Source of the DNA: Candidatus Micrarchaeota archaeon
GTDB lineage: Archaea > Micrarchaeota > Micrarchaeia > Norongarragalinales > Norongarragalinaceae
DNA: 29,686 nt
Reading direction: 5' to 3'
Assembly: GCA_037444485.1 (NCBI GenBank)
Contig: JBBIMI010000011.1
Span: 1-29,686, forward strand
The notes below the pieces were generated by a model. That model was not told where the DNA came from. It ran no database searches and worked only from the letters and a program-made list of their open reading frames with translations. Below, piece after piece: positions 3,734 through 29,686 of this stretch; the first letter of the stretch is position 1, and every line of letters begins with the position of its first letter. The position numbers and the translations under genes are program-made.

Positions 3734-6700
3734 ATGCAGACGAGAGTACTACAAGCGCTACAAGCAGCGCAAGAAGTGCCAGAAGCGTCGAAAGCGCCGG
3801 AAGCACCGCAAGCGTCGAAAGCGCCGCGAACGTTGCGAGCGCTGTTCGCCGCGCTTGTTTTTCTCGCTTTTTTTTCGCTTGCAGCGCTAGTTGCGCAAAG
3901 CGTGCAAGCGCTTTCTTTCAGTGAATACTCGTTTCTCTATGAAACTCCGAGCGCAAGCTCGTGGCAGTACTTGTTTTACGCGAAGTCGTGTAAAGGTTTT
4001 CTAAAGCAATCGTTTGAACCGCCTGCGATTCTCGTTCAAAGTAAAGAGTACGCGCCCGCGCTCGCTGCAGTGCTGGCAGCGCGGGACGCATTGCGTGAAG
4101 CGGCTGTCTTCGCGTCCTTGCAAAAGCTTTCACTCGACTGGCTTAACTATATTTACTATAATTGGTTTTCTTACTTGTGTTTTTCTCGCGGCGTCAGCGC
4201 GCTTGCGAGCGCTGAAGCTGCGGTGACAGCGTCTTTCGCGCCGCTTGACGAGTCGATTGCGAGCTTAGAATTCGCGTCTTCGAGCGAGTATACTGGAAGC
4301 GCTGGAGGGGTTTTAAACGAGTTGCGTGAAGCGTTTGAAGACGTGCGCGCGCGGCGAAGCGATGGGAACGGTTTCGGCAAGAAGTTTATTGCGAGCGTGA
4401 ATCTAGCGAACGGGGTTTCGAAGGCGTTCGCGTTCGCCAGCGCTTCAAGCAGCGATTTGTTTAACTCTGTGGATTCGCTCGCGGGACGGGAGTCTTTCTT
4501 GAAGGAGTCCATCGCATTGCGCGAGCGCGTTGTTGAAGCGCTTGAATCGCTTTACGCTGAAAACTATGCGTTGGAGCGTGACTTTAACGCGCGGTTGACT
4601 GCGGCGAAACGCATTCTCGACGAAGCGCGGAATGAAAAGCTTTACCTCGTCGGGACTGGCGCGTTTCAACTCGTTGGAGCCGGCAGCGTTTTGTCTTCAG
4701 AGTATAAAGTGGCTTCTTTCGAGGAAGAACTCGAAGACGCGCTTGCGCTTGTCGAAGACGCGCAGGCCCTTGAACGCGATGCGAGCGCGGCGCTCGCGCG
4801 TAAACGACGGGGTTTTCTTGCTGAAAGCATTTTGTTGTTGCGTGAAGCGGTTTCGAAAACTGTTAGTGCAAAGCAATCGCTTGACGGCGTTATGGAGAAA
4901 AGCGTTTTTCTAGAGAACGCATTGCGCGAGCGCGTGTTACGCGAACAACAAAACCTGCGCAACGCGATTGACGCGATTCGCGTAAGCAATCCTTACGCTG
5001 CTGCACGGGCTGAAGCATTTTTCGAAAAAGATTACGCTGCTTTGACGCAAGCCATTCGCACGCGGGGCGAGAGAATCGCGTTTTTCTTGAGTGAAGCCAC
5101 CGAGTTAATCGAATTGCAGAAGACGGCGTTTTCGTCGCAGGCGGGCGTGACGCAGGAAAAACAAGCGCTTTCAGGCGAAATCGCGTCCCTCAAGCGTTTG
5201 ATTGCGGATGCTGAGAAGGACGAGCTTGAACTTGATTACGAGAAACAGCGGCTTGCAGCAATAGAGGCGGCTGTCAAGCAATTAGGTGACGACGCGCAAA
5301 GCGCAGAGTCGCTCGCAGTGTTAAAGAAAGACTTGCAGGAATTGCGTGAAGGAGTTATAGCTCAAGCAGTGGAAAAATACTCGCTCGTATTAACGGATTA
5401 CTTTGCGCGCGTCAAGACTTTCGAAGAACTGCTCTCGCAGAAAGAGCAACTCGAATTTGCCGGAATCAATAAGTTTTTTGACGCGTTCGGGCAGCCGCGC
5501 GTGGCGGAATCGATAGGAAGCTTGAAGGGCGTGAAAAATTCGCTTGAGAAACTCATCGCGTCAATAGAACTCTCGCTTCCAGCATTATTGAAGAAAAGCT
5601 TGGAGGAAAACGCGCGCGTTACGGTGGAATTCGCGCAAGTAGAGTTAGACAAGCCTACCCGCGTCGTGCTGCGCGCAGAGTTCACCAACGTTTTACCTTA
5701 CTCTTACGACAAGCAGCTTATCTTGCAGACGAGGGAAATAAAAGATTTTCTGGCAGACTTAGAGAACGTGAAAGTGCTGAAAAAAAGCTTTGGGTTAAGC
5801 ATTTCACGCGAAGGCGTTCTATTAAACAAACTCGATAAAGAAGAGAATTACTTCATTGAACTCGAAAAGAACGTGATTATTGCTGAAAAGACCGGGGTTA
5901 CAGAACAAACTATTTCCGCATCCGAATCGCACGCAGTAAAACGTGAAAGCGTTTTCTTCAACCTCCACCCCCAGTTGCCGGCCCGCGTTTTTGTGTTAGT
6001 GAAACGCAGTCTCGCGTTTCCAGCCGAACTCACGCGCGTCGACTCGAACATTCTTGAAGCGCGCGCAGAGCGCGAAGCCGGCGGAACAACAGTAACGCTA
6101 CTCGTTTCAGCTGATTCAGGCCAGAACAAGGCAGGGTTCGAGTACGAAGTGCGCAACCCTGTCATAGTAACGCGTTCAGTGAAAACAAGCGGAAACTCGG
6201 TTGAATTAAATTATTCTTTCACTTCCTCTCACGCCGGGCTTTCGCTCGAGTCTGTCGAATTAAACGTTTTCGAAACGCTTAACTGCAGCGTGAAAAAAAT
6301 TTCCATAATCACAGCAATGCCTTACAAAACCAGTCAAGAAAACGGCTTTCTAGCAATTAGCTTCAAATCGGAGAAAATATCGCAGTACTCGAGCGAAACA
6401 GCTCTAGTGCGAATAGAGTGTGACTCGCTTGAACAAGCTGCTCGCGCAAAGCTGGAGGAACTGCGGCGACTACTCGCACAACTTGAAATCGCGGCCGAAG
6501 ACAAGACAATAATAGAAGCAAAGCTTTCGGCAGCAGAAACAGCGATAAGCAAAGAAAATTACGCTGACGCAATGCGGTTGCTGTTTGAAGCAGAAGATTT
6601 GATTCGCGTCGCGCAACAAAAAATGCTCGAGAAACAACAACTTGCGCGCGAAGCAGAACTCGCATTGAATTCTTCAATACTGTTGACTGCACAGCTCCAC

Positions 6701-7708
6701 AATGCTTCAACCGCACTCCTCGCGAAAGGCAACGTCGCGCAAGCGAACTCGCTGCTTGAAGTCGTCAAAGAAGCTGAAGCAATAATCGCGCGCGGCCGCC
6801 AATTGATTGCAGCCGGCGATTACGCAACCGCGCTCTCAGAACTCGGCGCACTTAACACGCGCCTCTCAACTGCACTAGAGGATTACGCTCGCGCAGAACT
6901 AGAACGCTTGCTTAAAGAATGCGGCGAAGCCGACAAATCAAGCGAAGCGTGCAGTGCGCAGGCACGCGAAGAACTACGGAAGGCTGCTGGCTTGATTGCG
7001 GCAAACGCTTTTCTCGACGCTTTCGACTCGCTCGCGCAAGCGGAAAAACTCTTGACGCAGTCTGCAAGCGAGTTTGAAGGCGAGAGGACTGCGAAGAGAA
7101 ATTTGATGCAGTCGTACCCGCAATTCAAGCAAGGCGTGCAAGACGCGCTCGCAGCGTTCGACGACGCGTTCAGCGTTCCGCAAGAGCTTGTTGGCGAGCG
7201 GCGAAAGAGTTTGTTGTTTCAAGAAGGCAACGTCGCGAAAACGAAGGTGGAGCGGTTGCTGAAGAAACTCGACGACGCTTGGACGGCTTTCGAAACCGGC
7301 GACGAGGCTTTCGGAAAGTATTCACTCGCGTTTTTGAATGAATCGCTCTACTCGCTCGCGGCGCTTCGCGGCGTGCTAGAAGAAAAAACTACTGCAATCA
7401 AGCTCGACGCAGAGCGCGAGCTCTCGACGGCGCGCGCGAGAGTAAAACAATTCGGTAATGATGTGACGCGCCAAGCATTGGAACGCGCTGAAAACGCTTT
7501 CGCCGAAAACAAATTTTTCACCGCGTTCGTAATCGCTAGCGAAGTGAACCGCGCGTTGGTTGGAGTGCCGTCCGCAGGCGTTGCAGAAGAACAAGCTGAA
7601 ACATGGAAGCTCATTCTCGCAATCGCTGGACTAACAATTTTGTTTGCGCTCGCGTACTTCATTGTCTTGCGCGACAAGACGCCGAAAAAGAAAAAACTGT
7701 TCGACTAA
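3734..7708 (+). CDS. Large (1324 aa) secreted, C-terminally anchored helical protein of unknown function
   Basis: N-terminal hydrophobic signal-like segment, long Ala/Glu/Leu helical regions, central beta-rich region, C-terminal TM followed by KKKK. Confidence 0.85.
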   Translation: MQTRVLQALQAAQEVPEASKAPEAPQASKAPRTLRALFAALVFLAFFSLAALVAQSVQALSFSEYSFLYETPSASSWQYLFYAKSCKGFLKQSFEPPAILVQSKEYAPALAAVLAARDALREAAVFASLQKLSLDWLNYIYYNWFSYLCFSRGVSALASAEAAVTASFAPLDESIASLEFASSSEYTGSAGGVLNELREAFEDVRARRSDGNGFGKKFIASVNLANGVSKAFAFASASSSDLFNSVDSLAGRESFLKESIALRERVVEALESLYAENYALERDFNARLTAAKRILDEARNEKLYLVGTGAFQLVGAGSVLSSEYKVASFEEELEDALALVEDAQALERDASAALARKRRGFLAESILLLREAVSKTVSAKQSLDGVMEKSVFLENALRERVLREQQNLRNAIDAIRVSNPYAAARAEAFFEKDYAALTQAIRTRGERIAFFLSEATELIELQKTAFSSQAGVTQEKQALSGEIASLKRLIADAEKDELELDYEKQRLAAIEAAVKQLGDDAQSAESLAVLKKDLQELREGVIAQAVEKYSLVLTDYFARVKTFEELLSQKEQLEFAGINKFFDAFGQPRVAESIGSLKGVKNSLEKLIASIELSLPALLKKSLEENARVTVEFAQVELDKPTRVVLRAEFTNVLPYSYDKQLILQTREIKDFLADLENVKVLKKSFGLSISREGVLLNKLDKEENYFIELEKNVIIAEKTGVTEQTISASESHAVKRESVFFNLHPQLPARVFVLVKRSLAFPAELTRVDSNILEARAEREAGGTTVTLLVSADSGQNKAGFEYEVRNPVIVTRSVKTSGNSVELNYSFTSSHAGLSLESVELNVFETLNCSVKKISIITAMPYKTSQENGFLAISFKSEKISQYSSETALVRIECDSLEQAARAKLEELRRLLAQLEIAAEDKTIIEAKLSAAETAISKENYADAMRLLFEAEDLIRVAQQKMLEKQQLAREAELALNSSILLTAQLHNASTALLAKGNVAQANSLLEVVKEAEAIIARGRQLIAAGDYATALSELGALNTRLSTALEDYARAELERLLKECGEADKSSEACSAQAREELRKAAGLIAANAFLDAFDSLAQAEKLLTQSASEFEGERTAKRNLMQSYPQFKQGVQDALAAFDDAFSVPQELVGERRKSLLFQEGNVAKTKVERLLKKLDDAWTAFETGDEAFGKYSLAFLNESLYSLAALRGVLEEKTTAIKLDAERELSTARARVKQFGNDVTRQALERAENAFAENKFFTAFVIASEVNRALVGVPSAGVAEEQAETWKLILAIAGLTILFALAYFIVLRDKTPKKKKLFD

Positions 7709-24258: not shown

Positions 24259-24557
24259 AACGCCACACCCTCAAATCAAATAAAAAAACAAGAATCGAAT
24301 AAAAAACAAGATAAAACGCTGTTGTTTAATAACTTTTCTCTAACATAACTTTTCTTTAAAATAACGCCTTTGCTAATAAAAGGGTTTTGGTAGCAGGTCA
24401 AGAGAGCAAGTTCCTGACTTTAAGATTTTTAACAACTTTTTTTTCTTTTCTTTCTTTCCTTTAACAACTTCTCCATTTCCTCTAACAACTTTTTTTCTCC
24501 CCCATTTTTTTTCTTCAACCTAACTCTTTTCCCAGCCCGCCATTAACTCTAATCCTG

Positions 24558-24660
24558 ACTCGAAACCAAGAAACCAGGAGACCTCGAAACTAAGACCCCG
24601 CTTCAAAACCAAGAACCCGCCTCGAAACCAAGAGACCTCGAAACCGAGAGATTAGAAACG
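24558..24660 (+). repeat. Degenerate tandem array of a CTCGAAACCAAGA-like unit
   Basis: About 5-6 imperfect copies with irregular period in the divergent glnA/SPFH spacer. Confidence 0.75.
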
Positions 24661-25577: not shown

Positions 25578-26573
25578 ATGCAGATTGTGATTAACGATTA
25601 CGGCGTATTTTTTGGTAAGAAAGGCGAAGTTTTTCAACTGAAAAAACCTGACGCGGAAGCTGAAGAAATTGCTGCCGAGCAAGTGAGTCAGGTAGTTATC
25701 GCGTCTCCAGCGACTGTTTCTTACGATGCGGTAAAACTCGCTATCGAGAAGGACGTTGACATAGTTTACTTGGATTGGCGTGGAATGCCGATAGCTCGAA
25801 TTTTTCCCTGCAAACTCGGTGGAACTACCCTGACGCGAAGAAAGCAATTAGAGGCTTACGAGACGGAAAAAGGCGCGGTTCTCGCGAAAACGATGGTCGG
25901 CGCCAAAATACTGAATCAAGCTTTTTTCTTGAAGTCTCTGGGAAAAAGCAGGAAAAACAAGTTGTTTTACGAGAATGCCGAAGCTATTCTAAAGTGCGAG
26001 AAGAAAATTGATTTTCTAAGCAAGAATATAGATTCCTTTAGGCAAGAGCTTTTGGGCATAGAGGGAAACTGCGCCAGCATCTACTTCAATTCTTTATCGG
26101 CAATTCTTCCTTTTAGTGGAAGGAATCAGGACGGCACCGACGCAGTAAACGTGTTCTTGAACTACGGCTACGGAATACTGTATTCCGAGATAGAGAAAGC
26201 ATGCATCTTAGCCGGCTTGGATCCTTACCTAGGCTTTTTCCATACAGATAGGTACGGCAAGCCCTCGATGGTTTTAGACTTGATTGAAGGCTTTCGCCCA
26301 ATAATAGTAGACCGCGCGATAGTCACGTTGTTCATTCAAAAGCAGGTTGACGAATCTTGTTTCGAAGAAGCGGAAGACGAAATTGGAAAAAGGTTGAGTA
26401 AGAGTGGTAGGGAAAAAATAATCAAGCAGGTTATGGAACGCTTGCACTCGAAAATAGTTTTTGAGGGAAAAAAGCTCGAGCTTCAAGGCATAATTTTGAA
26501 GCAGGCGCGAGCGATAGCGAAAAGCTTGTTGGATGATTCGTTCGAATTCAAGCCATTCATTTACAAGTGGTAG
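25578..26573 (+). CDS. cas1: CRISPR-associated integrase Cas1
   Basis: LLGIEG..A..YF, D..N..LNYGY..L, GLDPY.GF.H, LDL.E.FRP..VD; catalytic E/H/acidic residues present. Confidence 0.97.
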   Translation: MQIVINDYGVFFGKKGEVFQLKKPDAEAEEIAAEQVSQVVIASPATVSYDAVKLAIEKDVDIVYLDWRGMPIARIFPCKLGGTTLTRRKQLEAYETEKGAVLAKTMVGAKILNQAFFLKSLGKSRKNKLFYENAEAILKCEKKIDFLSKNIDSFRQELLGIEGNCASIYFNSLSAILPFSGRNQDGTDAVNVFLNYGYGILYSEIEKACILAGLDPYLGFFHTDRYGKPSMVLDLIEGFRPIIVDRAIVTLFIQKQVDESCFEEAEDEIGKRLSKSGREKIIKQVMERLHSKIVFEGKKLELQGIILKQARAIAKSLLDDSFEFKPFIYKW

Positions 26574-26585
26574 GGTAGTAAGAGA

Positions 26586-26864
26586 ATGTATTGGGTTATT
26601 TACGACATTAGCGAAAACAAAGTGCGTTCCAAAATCGTTAGGTTGTGCAAGAACTTCGGCTTGAGGAGAGTGCAGAAAAGCGCGTTTCTCGGATTGCTTT
26701 CGAAAAACAAGGCGGAAATGCTTTACGAGAAAAGCAAGGAAGTCCTCGAAGAAAGCGACTGCGTTTTCTTTCTTCCAGCTTGCAGAGAGTGCTTCAAAAG
26801 CAAGATAATCGCTGGAGAATTCGATGAAGATAAGTTCAAAGAGAAGGATTTCGTGGTGGTTTGA
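26586..26864 (+). CDS. cas2: CRISPR-associated protein Cas2
   Basis: VIYDIS..K.R, G..RVQKSAF.G; 92 aa; follows cas1. Confidence 0.96.
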   Translation: MYWVIYDISENKVRSKIVRLCKNFGLRRVQKSAFLGLLSKNKAEMLYEKSKEVLEESDCVFFLPACRECFKSKIIAGEFDEDKFKEKDFVVV

Positions 26865-27488
26865 ATGAATCGAAACGGCGTTTTGTCGATGAAGGACGTA
26901 ATGAATTTCGAGTACTGTCCTAGAATAATTTATTTCGAGCACGTCTTGCGGGAACCGCAAGAGACGACTATAAAAGAATTCGCTGGCAGGGAGAAAGACA
27001 AAGCGTACACGCCGTATTCCAAGCGGCTTAAGATAATCAAGCGTGAAAAGCCGCTGAAAGCAGAGCAGAAGACTGAATTGCCGGCGTTGGAGCGGAAGTA
27101 CAAGGTTTGGCTGTATTCGAGGGAAAAAAATTTTCAGACGGTTTTAGACTGCTTATTGTTTAACAATGAAGAAAAGAAGGCTTTTCCTTTGCAGTTTAAG
27201 AATACTTTCACGCCCGAAATTGTTTTTCGCACCCAAAAGTTGCAATTGTACGGCGAAGCGTCGCTCGTAAAAGAATTGCTTTGTTTTGACGTTCCAGCTG
27301 GTTTCTTGAAGTTTTTGAAGTCGGGCGATTGCATTAAAATACCTATTTGCGCTTATGGTTTAGAATGGTTTGAAGGCGTCTTGAGTGACGTAAGCAATAT
27401 AATTGAAGAGGAATGCTTGCCTGAACCGACGCCTCACAAGAAACGATGCGTTGACTGCTGCTTCAAAAAACAATGCTTGAGGACGTAA
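26865..27488 (+). CDS. cas4: CRISPR-associated protein Cas4 (atypical nuclease motifs)
   Basis: YCPR N-terminal Cys plus C..C.F...C C-terminal Fe-S ligands; abuts cas2 (TGA ATG); motifs D95, Q110-x-K112. Confidence 0.92.
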   Translation: MNRNGVLSMKDVMNFEYCPRIIYFEHVLREPQETTIKEFAGREKDKAYTPYSKRLKIIKREKPLKAEQKTELPALERKYKVWLYSREKNFQTVLDCLLFNNEEKKAFPLQFKNTFTPEIVFRTQKLQLYGEASLVKELLCFDVPAGFLKFLKSGDCIKIPICAYGLEWFEGVLSDVSNIIEEECLPEPTPHKKRCVDCCFKKQCLRT

Positions 27489-27507
27489 AGAAAGAGAGGT
27501 CATTTAA

Positions 27508-29217
27508 TTGGTTAGAAAGAGGAATGCGCAAGCAAAACAGATAAAATTATCCATTAAACTACGTTTTAAACCAAACCCAGAACAAGCAAAAGGAATATTG
27601 AAGTATCTTGAAAATTATAAACACATTTTTAACGTGGCGTCTAAGCGCATAAGTGAAATCAGGAGTCCATGGGCAGACATAGACGCGCAGATAAATTGCG
27701 ATAAGTGCAAAATAGAGAGTCCTAGAAATAATAAACAAAATTTGCGCACAGGGGAAAAAAGATGCCCAAAATGCTATAATTATGAATTCGGCAATCAATT
27801 CATACGAAAACTTGTTTTGCCTTCTCGTAGAAAGTCGGATATCACTAAACCCGTAGATCGGATCTTGCGGTTGACACCACAAAAGCTTGATTATTACGCG
27901 TTAGTCGATCACGCAATAAACCACTACGAATCATTTAAAGAACAGATTAAACAGCGAAAGAGAGTGCTTAAGAGATTCCGACTGAGATTGAACAGGTTTG
28001 AACAAATTTTAGAGGGTATAGGCTCGCCAAAGGTTGTAGAAATACTGCCTACTGGAAAAAAAAGGGTTTCTCGTTATCAGCTCAGAGAAAACTTTGAAAA
28101 AGGATTCAAAAGAGGTTACACTTTAAATGAATTGCAAAATAAAGTAATTAGCCTGAACGAAGATATAGAACGCAAGCAAAAGTCACTCAAAAGAAGCGCA
28201 ACACCACAACTCAAAAAGTTAATCGCAAAATTGTGGCAGGGTAAAGCAAAATTCGATTTTTCACAAGAGTCAGCACCGCGTTTGAGTCTAGAAATTGGTG
28301 GAGAAAAGTATGAAGACATGCCGATCGTTGTTAAGGACATTGTAAGCGAGACGAGTAGGAAGAGGGTTGAAGATGCACTTTCCACTATAAAGGAAGAATA
28401 CTTCAAAAACAAAGAAATTTCAGAATATGCTTACTTCTTTGCAAAACCGTCGCGAAAAAATCTTTCAGAAAGAGAGAAAACCCCAAGCAATTATGAATTT
28501 TATCTTCAATACACTTTTACGCCCAAAATCGAAGAAGAGTATATCCCTGAAACAGTTTTGGGTATAGATCTTGGAATAAAACATCCAGTTGTTTATTCTC
28601 TAGAAAAATTGCCAACATCTCCATCTCAGAAACCTATAGAAGTAAAGTTTGATCCAAGACCTGAAAATGTTCGGGGGGCAGATGTTATAAAAAAATTTCT
28701 AGAAAAAAAGAACCGAAGAGGAAACTATTTGTGGCGAATAGCGCCACGCAATAGAAAGGGAGAAGGCATTAAAAGAAAAAGTAATCGCCTTAAGTCGCTT
28801 CGTTCGATAACGAATTATGAGAATTGGTTTTTTCACAACATTTCAAAAAATTTGGTTAATTTAGCAAAATCAAAAAAAGCGCTTATAGCTATGGAAAATC
28901 TCGAAGGGATACGGCGCCGCATCCGGTATACGGGTAAGGAAAACCGTAGAGTGTTGTCGCTATTTACGCAAAAAAAGCTTCGAGATCTAATTAAATATAA
29001 AGCAAAACTGGCTGGTGTGCCATTCATTGAAGTACCGCCCGCTGAAACGAGCAAAAGGTGCTATGTCTGCGAAAAAGAAGGTGAAAGACCATACGAAGGA
29101 AATAGTGAACTATTTCACTGCAAAGAGTGCAATAAGACATTCAATGCGAACTATAATGCGAGCCGCAACATAGCAGCAAAAGGTTTTAAAATCTGGTCAG
29201 TACATAACAAGAAATAG
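27508..29217 (+). CDS. cas12f: Type V-F miniature effector Cas12f2 (Cas14b-like), 569 aa
   Basis: RuvC-I GIDLG (D354), RuvC-II AMENL (E463), YKAK..GV....VPP..TSK.C..C / C..C zinc finger, RuvC-III NANYNASRNIA; N-terminal CxxC..CxxC; segments I recall from Cas14b proteins (RGY.L, YAY..F.LQYT, F..KKL.DL..YKA, RP..GNS.LF.C); context of cas1/2/4 plus array; GAGGT RBS plus TTG. Confidence 0.92.
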   Translation: MVRKRNAQAKQIKLSIKLRFKPNPEQAKGILKYLENYKHIFNVASKRISEIRSPWADIDAQINCDKCKIESPRNNKQNLRTGEKRCPKCYNYEFGNQFIRKLVLPSRRKSDITKPVDRILRLTPQKLDYYALVDHAINHYESFKEQIKQRKRVLKRFRLRLNRFEQILEGIGSPKVVEILPTGKKRVSRYQLRENFEKGFKRGYTLNELQNKVISLNEDIERKQKSLKRSATPQLKKLIAKLWQGKAKFDFSQESAPRLSLEIGGEKYEDMPIVVKDIVSETSRKRVEDALSTIKEEYFKNKEISEYAYFFAKPSRKNLSEREKTPSNYEFYLQYTFTPKIEEEYIPETVLGIDLGIKHPVVYSLEKLPTSPSQKPIEVKFDPRPENVRGADVIKKFLEKKNRRGNYLWRIAPRNRKGEGIKRKSNRLKSLRSITNYENWFFHNISKNLVNLAKSKKALIAMENLEGIRRRIRYTGKENRRVLSLFTQKKLRDLIKYKAKLAGVPFIEVPPAETSKRCYVCEKEGERPYEGNSELFHCKECNKTFNANYNASRNIAAKGFKIWSVHNKK

Positions 29218-29219
29218 GC

Positions 29220-29240
29220 AAACTTGACCTTGTCAAGTTT
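29220..29240 (+). terminator. Perfect 9-bp inverted repeat right after the effector stop (terminator or processing hairpin)
   Basis: AAACTTGAC-CTT-GTCAAGTTT. Confidence 0.45.
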
Positions 29241-29254
29241 TCGGCTTAGTTATA

Positions 29255-29480
29255 CTCACTTTGTGAGGTCTAGTCAAGAGCAATCTTCGGACCCTACTTA
29301 GACTAGACGACCTCCACTGCAGAGGTCAAGGCTGTGAAAAACAGTCTGCATGGGCGCAATGATAAGCTTAGGGCCAGCGTAAGCTGCTACCGAAAGCGTC
29401 CCTAAAGGAACGTTAAGAGAAATTTTCTCTAAACGTGGACGCGCCCAATCCTAGTTAAGGTTCAACCAGCTCCGCAAGTA
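29255..29480 (+). ncRNA. Putative tracrRNA of the Cas12f2 system
   Basis: Dense hairpins, including GNRA-loop stems, plus anti-repeat 29447-29478 matching the repeat reverse complement ungapped at 20/32 and a separate TGCAT at 29347-29351; ends approximate. Confidence 0.78.
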
Positions 29481-29578
29481 TTTATTAATGAGTTTGTAAA
29501 AATGCCAGTTACATTAAATCACCTTCTAAACAACCGTTCTTAGGCTTCCGTTAGTCGAAAGGAGAAATTTTTTTGCCT
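29481..29578 (+). promoter_or_regulatory. CRISPR leader
   Basis: Non-coding ~100 bp between the anti-repeat and the first repeat; AT-rich with TTTATTAA TATA-like box. Confidence 0.6.
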
Positions 29579-29686
29579 GTTGCGGCGCGCGAATAAACGA
29601 GACTAGGAATGCAACATAAATTCCAGTTTTCCTTTGGAAATCTCGTTTTCAAGTTGCGGCGCGCGAATAAACGAGACTAGGAATGC
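29579..29686 (+). CRISPR. Start of CRISPR array: 37-bp repeat GTTGCGGCGCGCGAATAAACGAGACTAGGAATGCAAC, one 37-bp spacer, second repeat cut by window end
   Basis: Repeat 29579-29615, spacer 29616-29652, identical repeat 29653-29686 (34 nt visible); GTTGC...GCAAC termini and GGAATGCAAC 3' end typical of archaeal Cas14 repeats. Confidence 0.93.

Follow-up and report, generated by a model that had tools for sequence, protein, structure and literature searches.

Does a miniature CRISPR effector still cut DNA when its RuvC nuclease site carries asparagine (Asn) in place of the third catalytic aspartate (Asp), or does it act in some other way? The question is raised by a locus at the end of contig JBBIMI010000011.1 from a Candidatus Micrarchaeota archaeon (GenBank assembly GCA_037444485.1). 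We analysed this contig in its entirety, and its 29,686 nucleotides are referred to here as the window; the genome to which it belongs comprises 0.96 Mb in 58 contigs and is 95% complete. At issue is the gene for a 569-residue Cas12f2-like effector that lies beside genes for spacer acquisition and a CRISPR array. An original prediction, made from the DNA letters and their translations, had proposed that the RuvC-III Asp of this protein is replaced by Asn and that the effector may be a compact nickase, a slow nuclease or an RNA-guided repressor; it conceded that faulty sequencing, or function lost only recently, might be responsible.

Asparagine at the RuvC-III position of a divergent Cas12f2 lineage

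The proposed replacement is borne out by the alignments. The codon in question reads AAC, and where another Asp might have been found to occupy the RuvC-III site, it is Asn548 (N548) itself that falls in the Asp column. In HMMER alignments it stands opposite the RuvC-III Asp of solved TnpB and AsCas12f chains ('naNynasrnia' against 'naDrnasfnia' and 'naDynaarnia'). The column holds Asp in all 22 other rows of a 24-row alignment of full-length relatives; in a wider alignment of 150 rows it holds 146 Asp, 3 Asn and 1 histidine (His). Because Asp is so prevalent there, Asn at this column is, on the evidence of aligned relatives, a rarity rather than a chance feature of the family. These frequencies are alignment-based counts, and the rows that a regular-expression scoring had given as S, E, K or A, among them P0031 and P0039, were matched away from the RuvC-III site. 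A TnpB-like fragment of 234 residues (P0084) has His at the RuvC-III column (NAHRNAARNI), which recalls the Asp-to-His branch of PMC10691335.

The remainder of the effector is well preserved. Its open reading frame begins with TTG and is uninterrupted, its C-terminus is full length and the RuvC-III Asp is the sole changed catalytic residue; in place of an intact D-E-D triad the protein has D354, E463 and N548. The original prediction was also right that D354 and E463 are intact (GAT and GAA codons, both columns invariant in 24 of 24 rows) and that both zinc fingers are kept, since C64/C67/C86/C89 and C518/C521/C538/C541 are conserved between the window protein (P0001) and its close homologue (P0002, 554 residues). 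Across the 24-row alignment the invariant positions are G352, D354, E463, T514, S515, C518, C521, C538, N550 and A551.

Could the Asn be an artefact, or a lesion of recent date? P0002 is the only close homologue returned by a word-indexed search of 5.8 billion clustered proteins; it is 54% identical to the window protein and carries the identical motif KTFNANYNASRNIAAKG. All five protein records in the P0001 and P0002 clusters, drawn from NCBI, Logan, JGI/IMG and ENA, have Asn, and a 1-residue variant of the window protein is among them. A Logan contig from run X1 (3067 nt, depth 10.2) spans 27400-29608 and differs from the window only at 27954 and 27964, although it possibly derives from the source sample and is then not independent. 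The path between P0001 and P0002 amounts to 0.91 changes per column, with Asn in both. Because Asn is common to two lineages that are only 54% identical, we conclude from these sequences that Asn548 reflects neither an error of sequencing nor a loss that happened recently, and that it is fixed in a small lineage. An error of sequencing or assembly at 29149 has a negligible probability, given the agreement of the five records from four sources and, with the reservation about its origin, of the Logan contig at that position. The caveat attached to the original prediction therefore falls away, as does the doubt over whether Asn is fixed in a clade, and conservation of the nuclease half (below) points in the same direction.

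Beyond this pair, Asn at the RuvC-III column is scarce. An HMMER search against 1.84 billion representatives gave 2406 matches, and among the best 150 Asn occurs only in P0002 and in P0061, a 94-residue fragment from a single JGI record. P0061 reads INANYNAAVNIA, with Asn at RuvC-III, and groups with P0015, which bears Asp (62% identity, support 91). Asp may have changed to Asn there a second time within Cas12f2, independently, or the record may be in error. When residues 440-569 were used to query shorter proteins, the one match was P0169, a fragment of TnpB whose motif is of the D type. No relative was confirmed by peptide-pattern scans of metagenome_contigs and genome_contigs, and genome_contigs contained no locus fitting a degenerate DNA pattern for N-A-N-Y-N-A-x-x-N-I-A. 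Three of 40 relatives of the source genome had matches, all about 30% identical and partial. The same DNA pattern gave two loci in metagenome_contigs, which we rejected: both hold a high-GC TnpB-like gene with frame breaks, unrelated to Cas12f2. These loci (L007, about 5001-6093 on the minus strand; L008, 1636-2653 on the plus strand) have the NANYNA motif and the tandem peptide repeats QPTGAIAF and TGNNSA.

Assignment of the effector to Cas12f2, also part of the original prediction, is supported by profile matches that run end to end and by its place in the tree. Residues 15-562 align with positions 1-522 of the 524 in NF049972 (CRISPR_Cas12f2) with an expectation value (E) of 2.2e-79, at 267.6 bits and so under the curated cutoff of 450; Mi1Cas12f2 scores 586.7 bits on this profile. 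The PADLOC Cas14b model matches end to end (E 4.6e-68). An AlphaFold2 model (150 sequences) has a predicted local distance difference test score (pLDDT) of 89 and a predicted template modelling score of 0.84, with pLDDT at least 92 over residues 501-569, and its top structural matches are AsCas12f, CnCas12f, OsCas12f, SpCas12f1 and Un1Cas12f1. Between RuvC-I and RuvC-II the window protein has a 10-residue insertion relative to P0002 (PENVRGADVI, residues 384-393, window 28657-28686), which lies inside a stretch modelled at low confidence (residues 381-430, pLDDT 57-68).

In a 33-row tree built by a quick method, P0001 and P0002 pair with a Shimodaira-Hasegawa-like approximate likelihood ratio test (SH-aLRT) value of 100; the stem that leads to them is long, at 1.51 changes per column. 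The pair is nested in a 17-row clade (SH-aLRT 99) that holds Mi1Cas12f2 (Cas14b4; P0016, OIO21000.1), and the TnpB outgroup rows stand separate; Mi2Cas12f2 (RLG21245.1) belongs to the P0052 cluster. Because the Asn-bearing pair is nested within the Asp-bearing Mi1Cas12f2 clade, it constitutes, as judged from the tree, a divergent branch of Cas12f2 where a single change of Asp to Asn has been fixed.

Constraint on the nuclease half and activity of the altered site

A changed catalytic residue could mark a gene that is decaying or already useless, with Asn as a loss of function on the way to pseudogenization. Such decay could begin with a single transition, GAC to AAC, at the catalytic codon. 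We consider it very improbable here, as the frame is open over 569 codons and the Asn, set in an identical motif, is common to lineages as far apart as P0001 and P0002. The two proteins are 47% identical in the N-terminal half and 64% in the C-terminal RuvC/TNB half, a ratio of 1.35, where ten Asp-bearing pairs range from 0.94 to 1.60. Identity in the RuvC-III helix (81%) and in the TNB zinc ribbon (68%) is at the top of the range for Asp-bearing pairs. In the other 22 full-length relatives, 25 columns reach at least 90% conservation; the pair retains 23 of them and departs at two (K19R and D548N). At an 80% threshold it keeps 36 of 40, which falls inside the range of other pairs (0-12 columns broken). 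Because conservation of the nuclease half matches that of Asp-bearing pairs, the comparison indicates that the effector is under constraint and that its nuclease domain is not relaxed.

The residues that persist suggest what this constraint may protect. Retention of D354, E463 and R527, together with 23 of the 25 columns, argues that the active site still matters, and a slow or altered nuclease would accord with it no less well than a protein that only binds. With two lineages only, the persistence of D354 and E463 speaks weakly for continued catalysis. We also considered deamidation of Asn548 to Asp; Asn-Tyr at the start of a helix is not known to be a hot spot for this reaction.

Replacement of Asp by Asn at metal ligands of RNase H-fold nucleases usually reduces activity by orders of magnitude. 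Because such changes are usually costly, and because Cas12m and Cas12c offer a precedent, our tentative preference, at somewhat less than an even chance, is for a functional effector in which Asn strongly slows cleavage and interference proceeds mainly by stable R-loop binding. In outline, a small-genome archaeon would possess a working chromosomal type V-F2 (Cas14b-like) CRISPR locus made up of cas1, cas2, cas4, the 569-residue Cas12f2-like effector, a structured region resembling a trans-activating CRISPR RNA (tracrRNA) and an array. The third metal-binding carboxylate of RuvC has been exchanged for Asn in this lineage, and the exchange would have been kept under purifying selection. The effector would still assemble with guide RNA, and R-loops would form on double-stranded DNA (dsDNA) in dependence on a protospacer-adjacent motif (PAM). 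Two carboxylates and an amide oxygen would hold the second Mg2+ poorly, so that DNA hydrolysis would be strongly slowed, leaving slow cutting or nicking that is possibly Mn2+-dependent. Interference may then come largely from persistent bound complexes that keep invaders from being transcribed or replicated, comparable to Cas12c and Cas12m. PMC10691335 describes both immunity by Cas12m through binding alone and Cas12f branches whose catalytic sites are altered, and Un1Cas12f1 D510A is among the protein constructs in the supplement of Karvelis 2020 (PMC7229846).

Several points weigh against strongly slowed cleavage. D354, E463 and R527, which pure binding would not require, are kept in both lineages, although two lineages are weak evidence either way. 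In other nuclease folds Mg2+ has Asn among its normal ligands. Conserved, specific replacements in the active sites of TnpB and Cas12 proteins are argued to mean, in many cases, that nuclease activity is retained (PMC10691335).

Alternatively, the enzyme could be a fully competent nuclease, in which the carbonyl oxygen of Asn548 ligates the metal or a nearby acidic residue, for example Glu513, takes over. We regard this as a serious though somewhat unlikely alternative. Cutting would be about equal to that of other Cas12f2 enzymes, themselves weak in vitro; native Mi1Cas12f2 gave only a 'slight increase' of cleavage signal (Karvelis 2020, bioRxiv 10.1101/654897). Full competence would agree with the retained D354, E463, R527 and TNB zinc ribbon and with a nuclease half conserved as in Asp-bearing pairs. 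It also has parallels in PMC10691335, where TnpB sites are rearranged, one with an alternative Glu, where the catalytic Glu of RuvX lies in beta-5, and where the largest RuvC-III-altered branch, with Asp changed to His, is judged probably active. Among the 24 full-length rows, the acidic residues specific to the pair in the RuvC half are E366, E438, E513 and E534. E513 sits just before the invariant T514-S515 and after a model strand at 506-509; it is common to both Asn-bearing lineages, and the other 22 full-length relatives mostly have Tyr or Gly there. However, an acidic residue is found at the 513 column in 11 of 150 rows, 9 of which have the normal Asp, so it is not tied to Asn, and the Asn-bearing fragment P0061 has Phe at this column. 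On these alignments a compensating Glu513 is weakly supported, and Asp-to-Asn at such ligands is usually crippling.

A further proposal takes the loss of cleavage to completion. The effector may be a natural 'dCas12f2' in a system that still carries out adaptation, providing small-genome (DPANN-like) archaea with spacer-acquiring immunity purely by RNA-guided binding, and a change of N548 to Asp would toggle it between binder and cutter. We find this rather doubtful.

Adaptation genes, candidate guide RNA and array

The original prediction placed adaptation genes and an array beside the effector, and this holds. Full-length cas1, cas2 and cas4 lie directly upstream, and the array begins 361 nt downstream (Table 1). 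Because the rest of the contig carries housekeeping genes, we consider the locus chromosomal; they encode, among others, the two phenylalanyl-tRNA synthetase subunits, glutamine synthetase, an adenosine-specific kinase (PF04008) and a member of the ATP_bind_1 family (PF03029). Together with the size of the genome, these genes would suggest a DPANN-like archaeon. Elsewhere in the window, an open reading frame for 1324 residues at 3734-7708 (plus strand) matches no Pfam family at E 1e-5, and clustered imperfect direct repeats of the type CTCGAAACCAAGA.ACC occur at 24545-24654, upstream of an SPFH/Band 7 gene.

Table 1. Features of the effector locus, with positions in the window
Feature	Position	Strand	Basis or remark
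cas1	25578..26573	+	PF01867 Cas_Cas1, E 4.3e-73, profile 2-281 of 283
cas2	26586..26864	+	PF09827 CRISPR_Cas2, E 1.6e-17
cas4	26865..27488	+	TIGR00372, E 3e-17, 63 bits (cutoff 65); PADLOC Cas4b, E 3.3e-23; Pfam match weak
cas12f2-like effector gene, 569 aa, RuvC triad D354-E463-N548	27508..29217	+	NF049972; PADLOC Cas14b; PF07282 TNB, E 6.8e-17
N-terminal zinc finger, C64 C67 ... C86 C89	27697..27774	+	4 Cys invariant between P0001 and P0002; columns common to most full-length relatives
RuvC-I Asp, D354 (GAT)	28567..28569	+	Invariant in 24/24 rows; D in 126/129 non-gap rows of the 150-row alignment
RuvC-II Glu, E463 (GAA)	28894..28896	+	Invariant in 24/24 rows; E in 137/150 rows
TNB zinc ribbon, C518 C521 ... 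C538 C541, with conserved R527	29059..29130	+	PF07282; Cys columns (nearly) invariant; R in 129/150 rows
RuvC-III position, Asn548 (AAC) where the family has Asp	29149..29151	+	Codon 548; motif FNANYNASRNIA
Structured non-coding region, tracrRNA candidate and array leader	29218..29578	+	Folding of 29218-29480; possible split anti-repeat 29449-29477
CRISPR repeat 1, 37 nt	29579..29615	+	One full copy
Spacer, 37 nt	29616..29652	+	Between both repeat copies
CRISPR repeat 2, cut by contig end	29653..29686	+	Partial copy

This gene neighbourhood bears on a different function for the effector, that of a host-gene regulator. Like TldR or dCas12f, it could be an RNA-guided repressor or activator on chromosomal promoters, which is the mode of action of naturally inactivated Cas12f and TnpB relatives (PMC13472631, PMC10691335). 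Those regulators have a truncated RuvC or several mutated catalytic residues and are mostly without arrays and adaptation genes, whereas here one residue is changed and cas1, cas2, cas4 and an array are present. No sigma factor or helix-turn-helix (HTH) gene adjoins the effector: on its upstream side come cas4, cas2 and cas1, and the contig stops 469 bases downstream, within the array. Searched at up to 3 mismatches, the 95%-complete genome contains no second match to the one visible spacer. Because cas1-cas2-cas4 is intact and the visible spacer is without a second genomic match, a TldR-like host repressor is the option with the least support, and we consider regulation of host genes improbable.

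Within the 58-contig assembly no further repeat copies were found at up to 3 mismatches, and the spacer has no exact match in viral_contigs. A 6520-nt contig of run X1, with a depth of 22 (twice that of the contig studied here), holds one repeat-like copy with 2 other letters and unrelated flanks.

The tracrRNA candidate of the original prediction stands in part. Positions 29218-29480 fold at -91.6 kcal/mol (z -5.03), and none of 200 shuffles does as well. The region also recurs in other samples: contigs from runs X2 and X3 hold 29158-29541 and 29223-29604, respectively, with few changes, and insertions and deletions cluster at 29374-29414. Pairing with the repeat is where the prediction fares less well. 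A possible split anti-repeat would pair 29449-29456 with repeat positions 22-29 and 29470-29477 with positions 2-8, but the duplex between intergenic RNA and repeat (-25.6 kcal/mol) does not differ significantly from that formed with shuffled repeats (-23.7 +/- 2.7, minimum -32.0). No Rfam family was matched in the window.

The X2 contig (909 nt, from a different study, of sediment) aligns with 29158-29541 with 15 other letters and 4 gaps and is unlike the window before 29158; the X3 material consists of two short pieces, and run X4 contributed no aligned sequence. Because the X2 contig diverges before 29158, the alignment indicates that the tracr-like region moves about, or is maintained, separately from this particular effector gene.

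Relation to known systems and implications

The closest characterized counterparts are Mi1Cas12f2 (Cas14b4) and Mi2Cas12f2 (Cas14b17), type V-F2 effectors that are likewise from Micrarchaeota. They share the family profile end to end with the window protein, which scores below its curated cutoff and falls with Mi1Cas12f2 in the same well-supported clade. At 544-586 residues they are of similar size to the window protein (569), and all have the N-terminal zinc finger and the TNB zinc ribbon. Their loci also include cas1, cas2 and cas4, and they cut dsDNA after protospacer position 21 beside T-rich PAMs (PMC7229846). Yet identity to the window protein is only 25-26%, and the RuvC-III residue is Asp in Mi1Cas12f2 and Mi2Cas12f2 and Asn here.

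Other comparisons concern the mode of action. Cas12m (V-M) and Cas12c (V-C) confer immunity by binding without target cleavage, the mode that we tentatively propose for this effector. They belong to different, larger Cas12 lineages, and beyond the RuvC core we see no kinship (Cas12m4a, E 1.6e-4). Cas12c keeps an intact DED triad, which it uses to process precursor CRISPR RNA.

The dCas12f-sigmaE and TldR proteins are Cas12f and TnpB scaffolds with an altered RuvC that act by RNA-guided binding. They are bacterial, with C-terminal truncations or several mutated catalytic residues; most are without arrays or adaptation genes and have sigma factor or HTH genes linked to them. In contrast, the window effector is full length, has one conservative change and is accompanied by adaptation genes and an array. 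The RIIIr branches of TnpB (Altae-Tran et al. 2023), among which RIIIr-4 has Asp changed to His, resemble it in that the RuvC-III Asp is replaced in a lineage-conserved manner and the rest of the site is kept, and their authors read them as probably retaining an altered activity (PMC10691335). These are TnpB branches, however, and RIIIr-4 is also without the C4 zinc finger, unlike the window effector.

Altered RuvC sites in Cas12f are already described, as is binding-only action by Cas12c, Cas12m and dCas12f, and naturally dead Cas12f homologues are characterized in PMC13472631. What may be new is the combination. The literature searched yielded no Cas12f2 lineage that has Asn at RuvC-III and also an adjoining adaptation module; one might be listed in the figures and data tables of PMC10691335, which were outside the search. 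In the main text of that paper we came across neither an Asn variant nor Cas12f2, and in the supplementary text covered we came across no Asn.

The value of the finding lies in a clean, one-residue contrast between the wild type and N548D. If the enzyme cuts normally, the RuvC site of Cas12 proteins would tolerate an amide at the third ligand, which bears on sequence-based 'dead' calls in genome surveys. If Asn silences or slows cleavage, the protein would be a natural and selection-tested DNA binder or nickase of very small size with its own guide RNA. Among systems of this kind, a purely binding 'dCas12f2' would be the smallest and the first archaeal one. More broadly, if cleavage is indeed silenced or slowed, cleavage-independent adaptive immunity of the kind known from Cas12c and Cas12m would also have arisen inside the miniature V-F2 systems of archaea.

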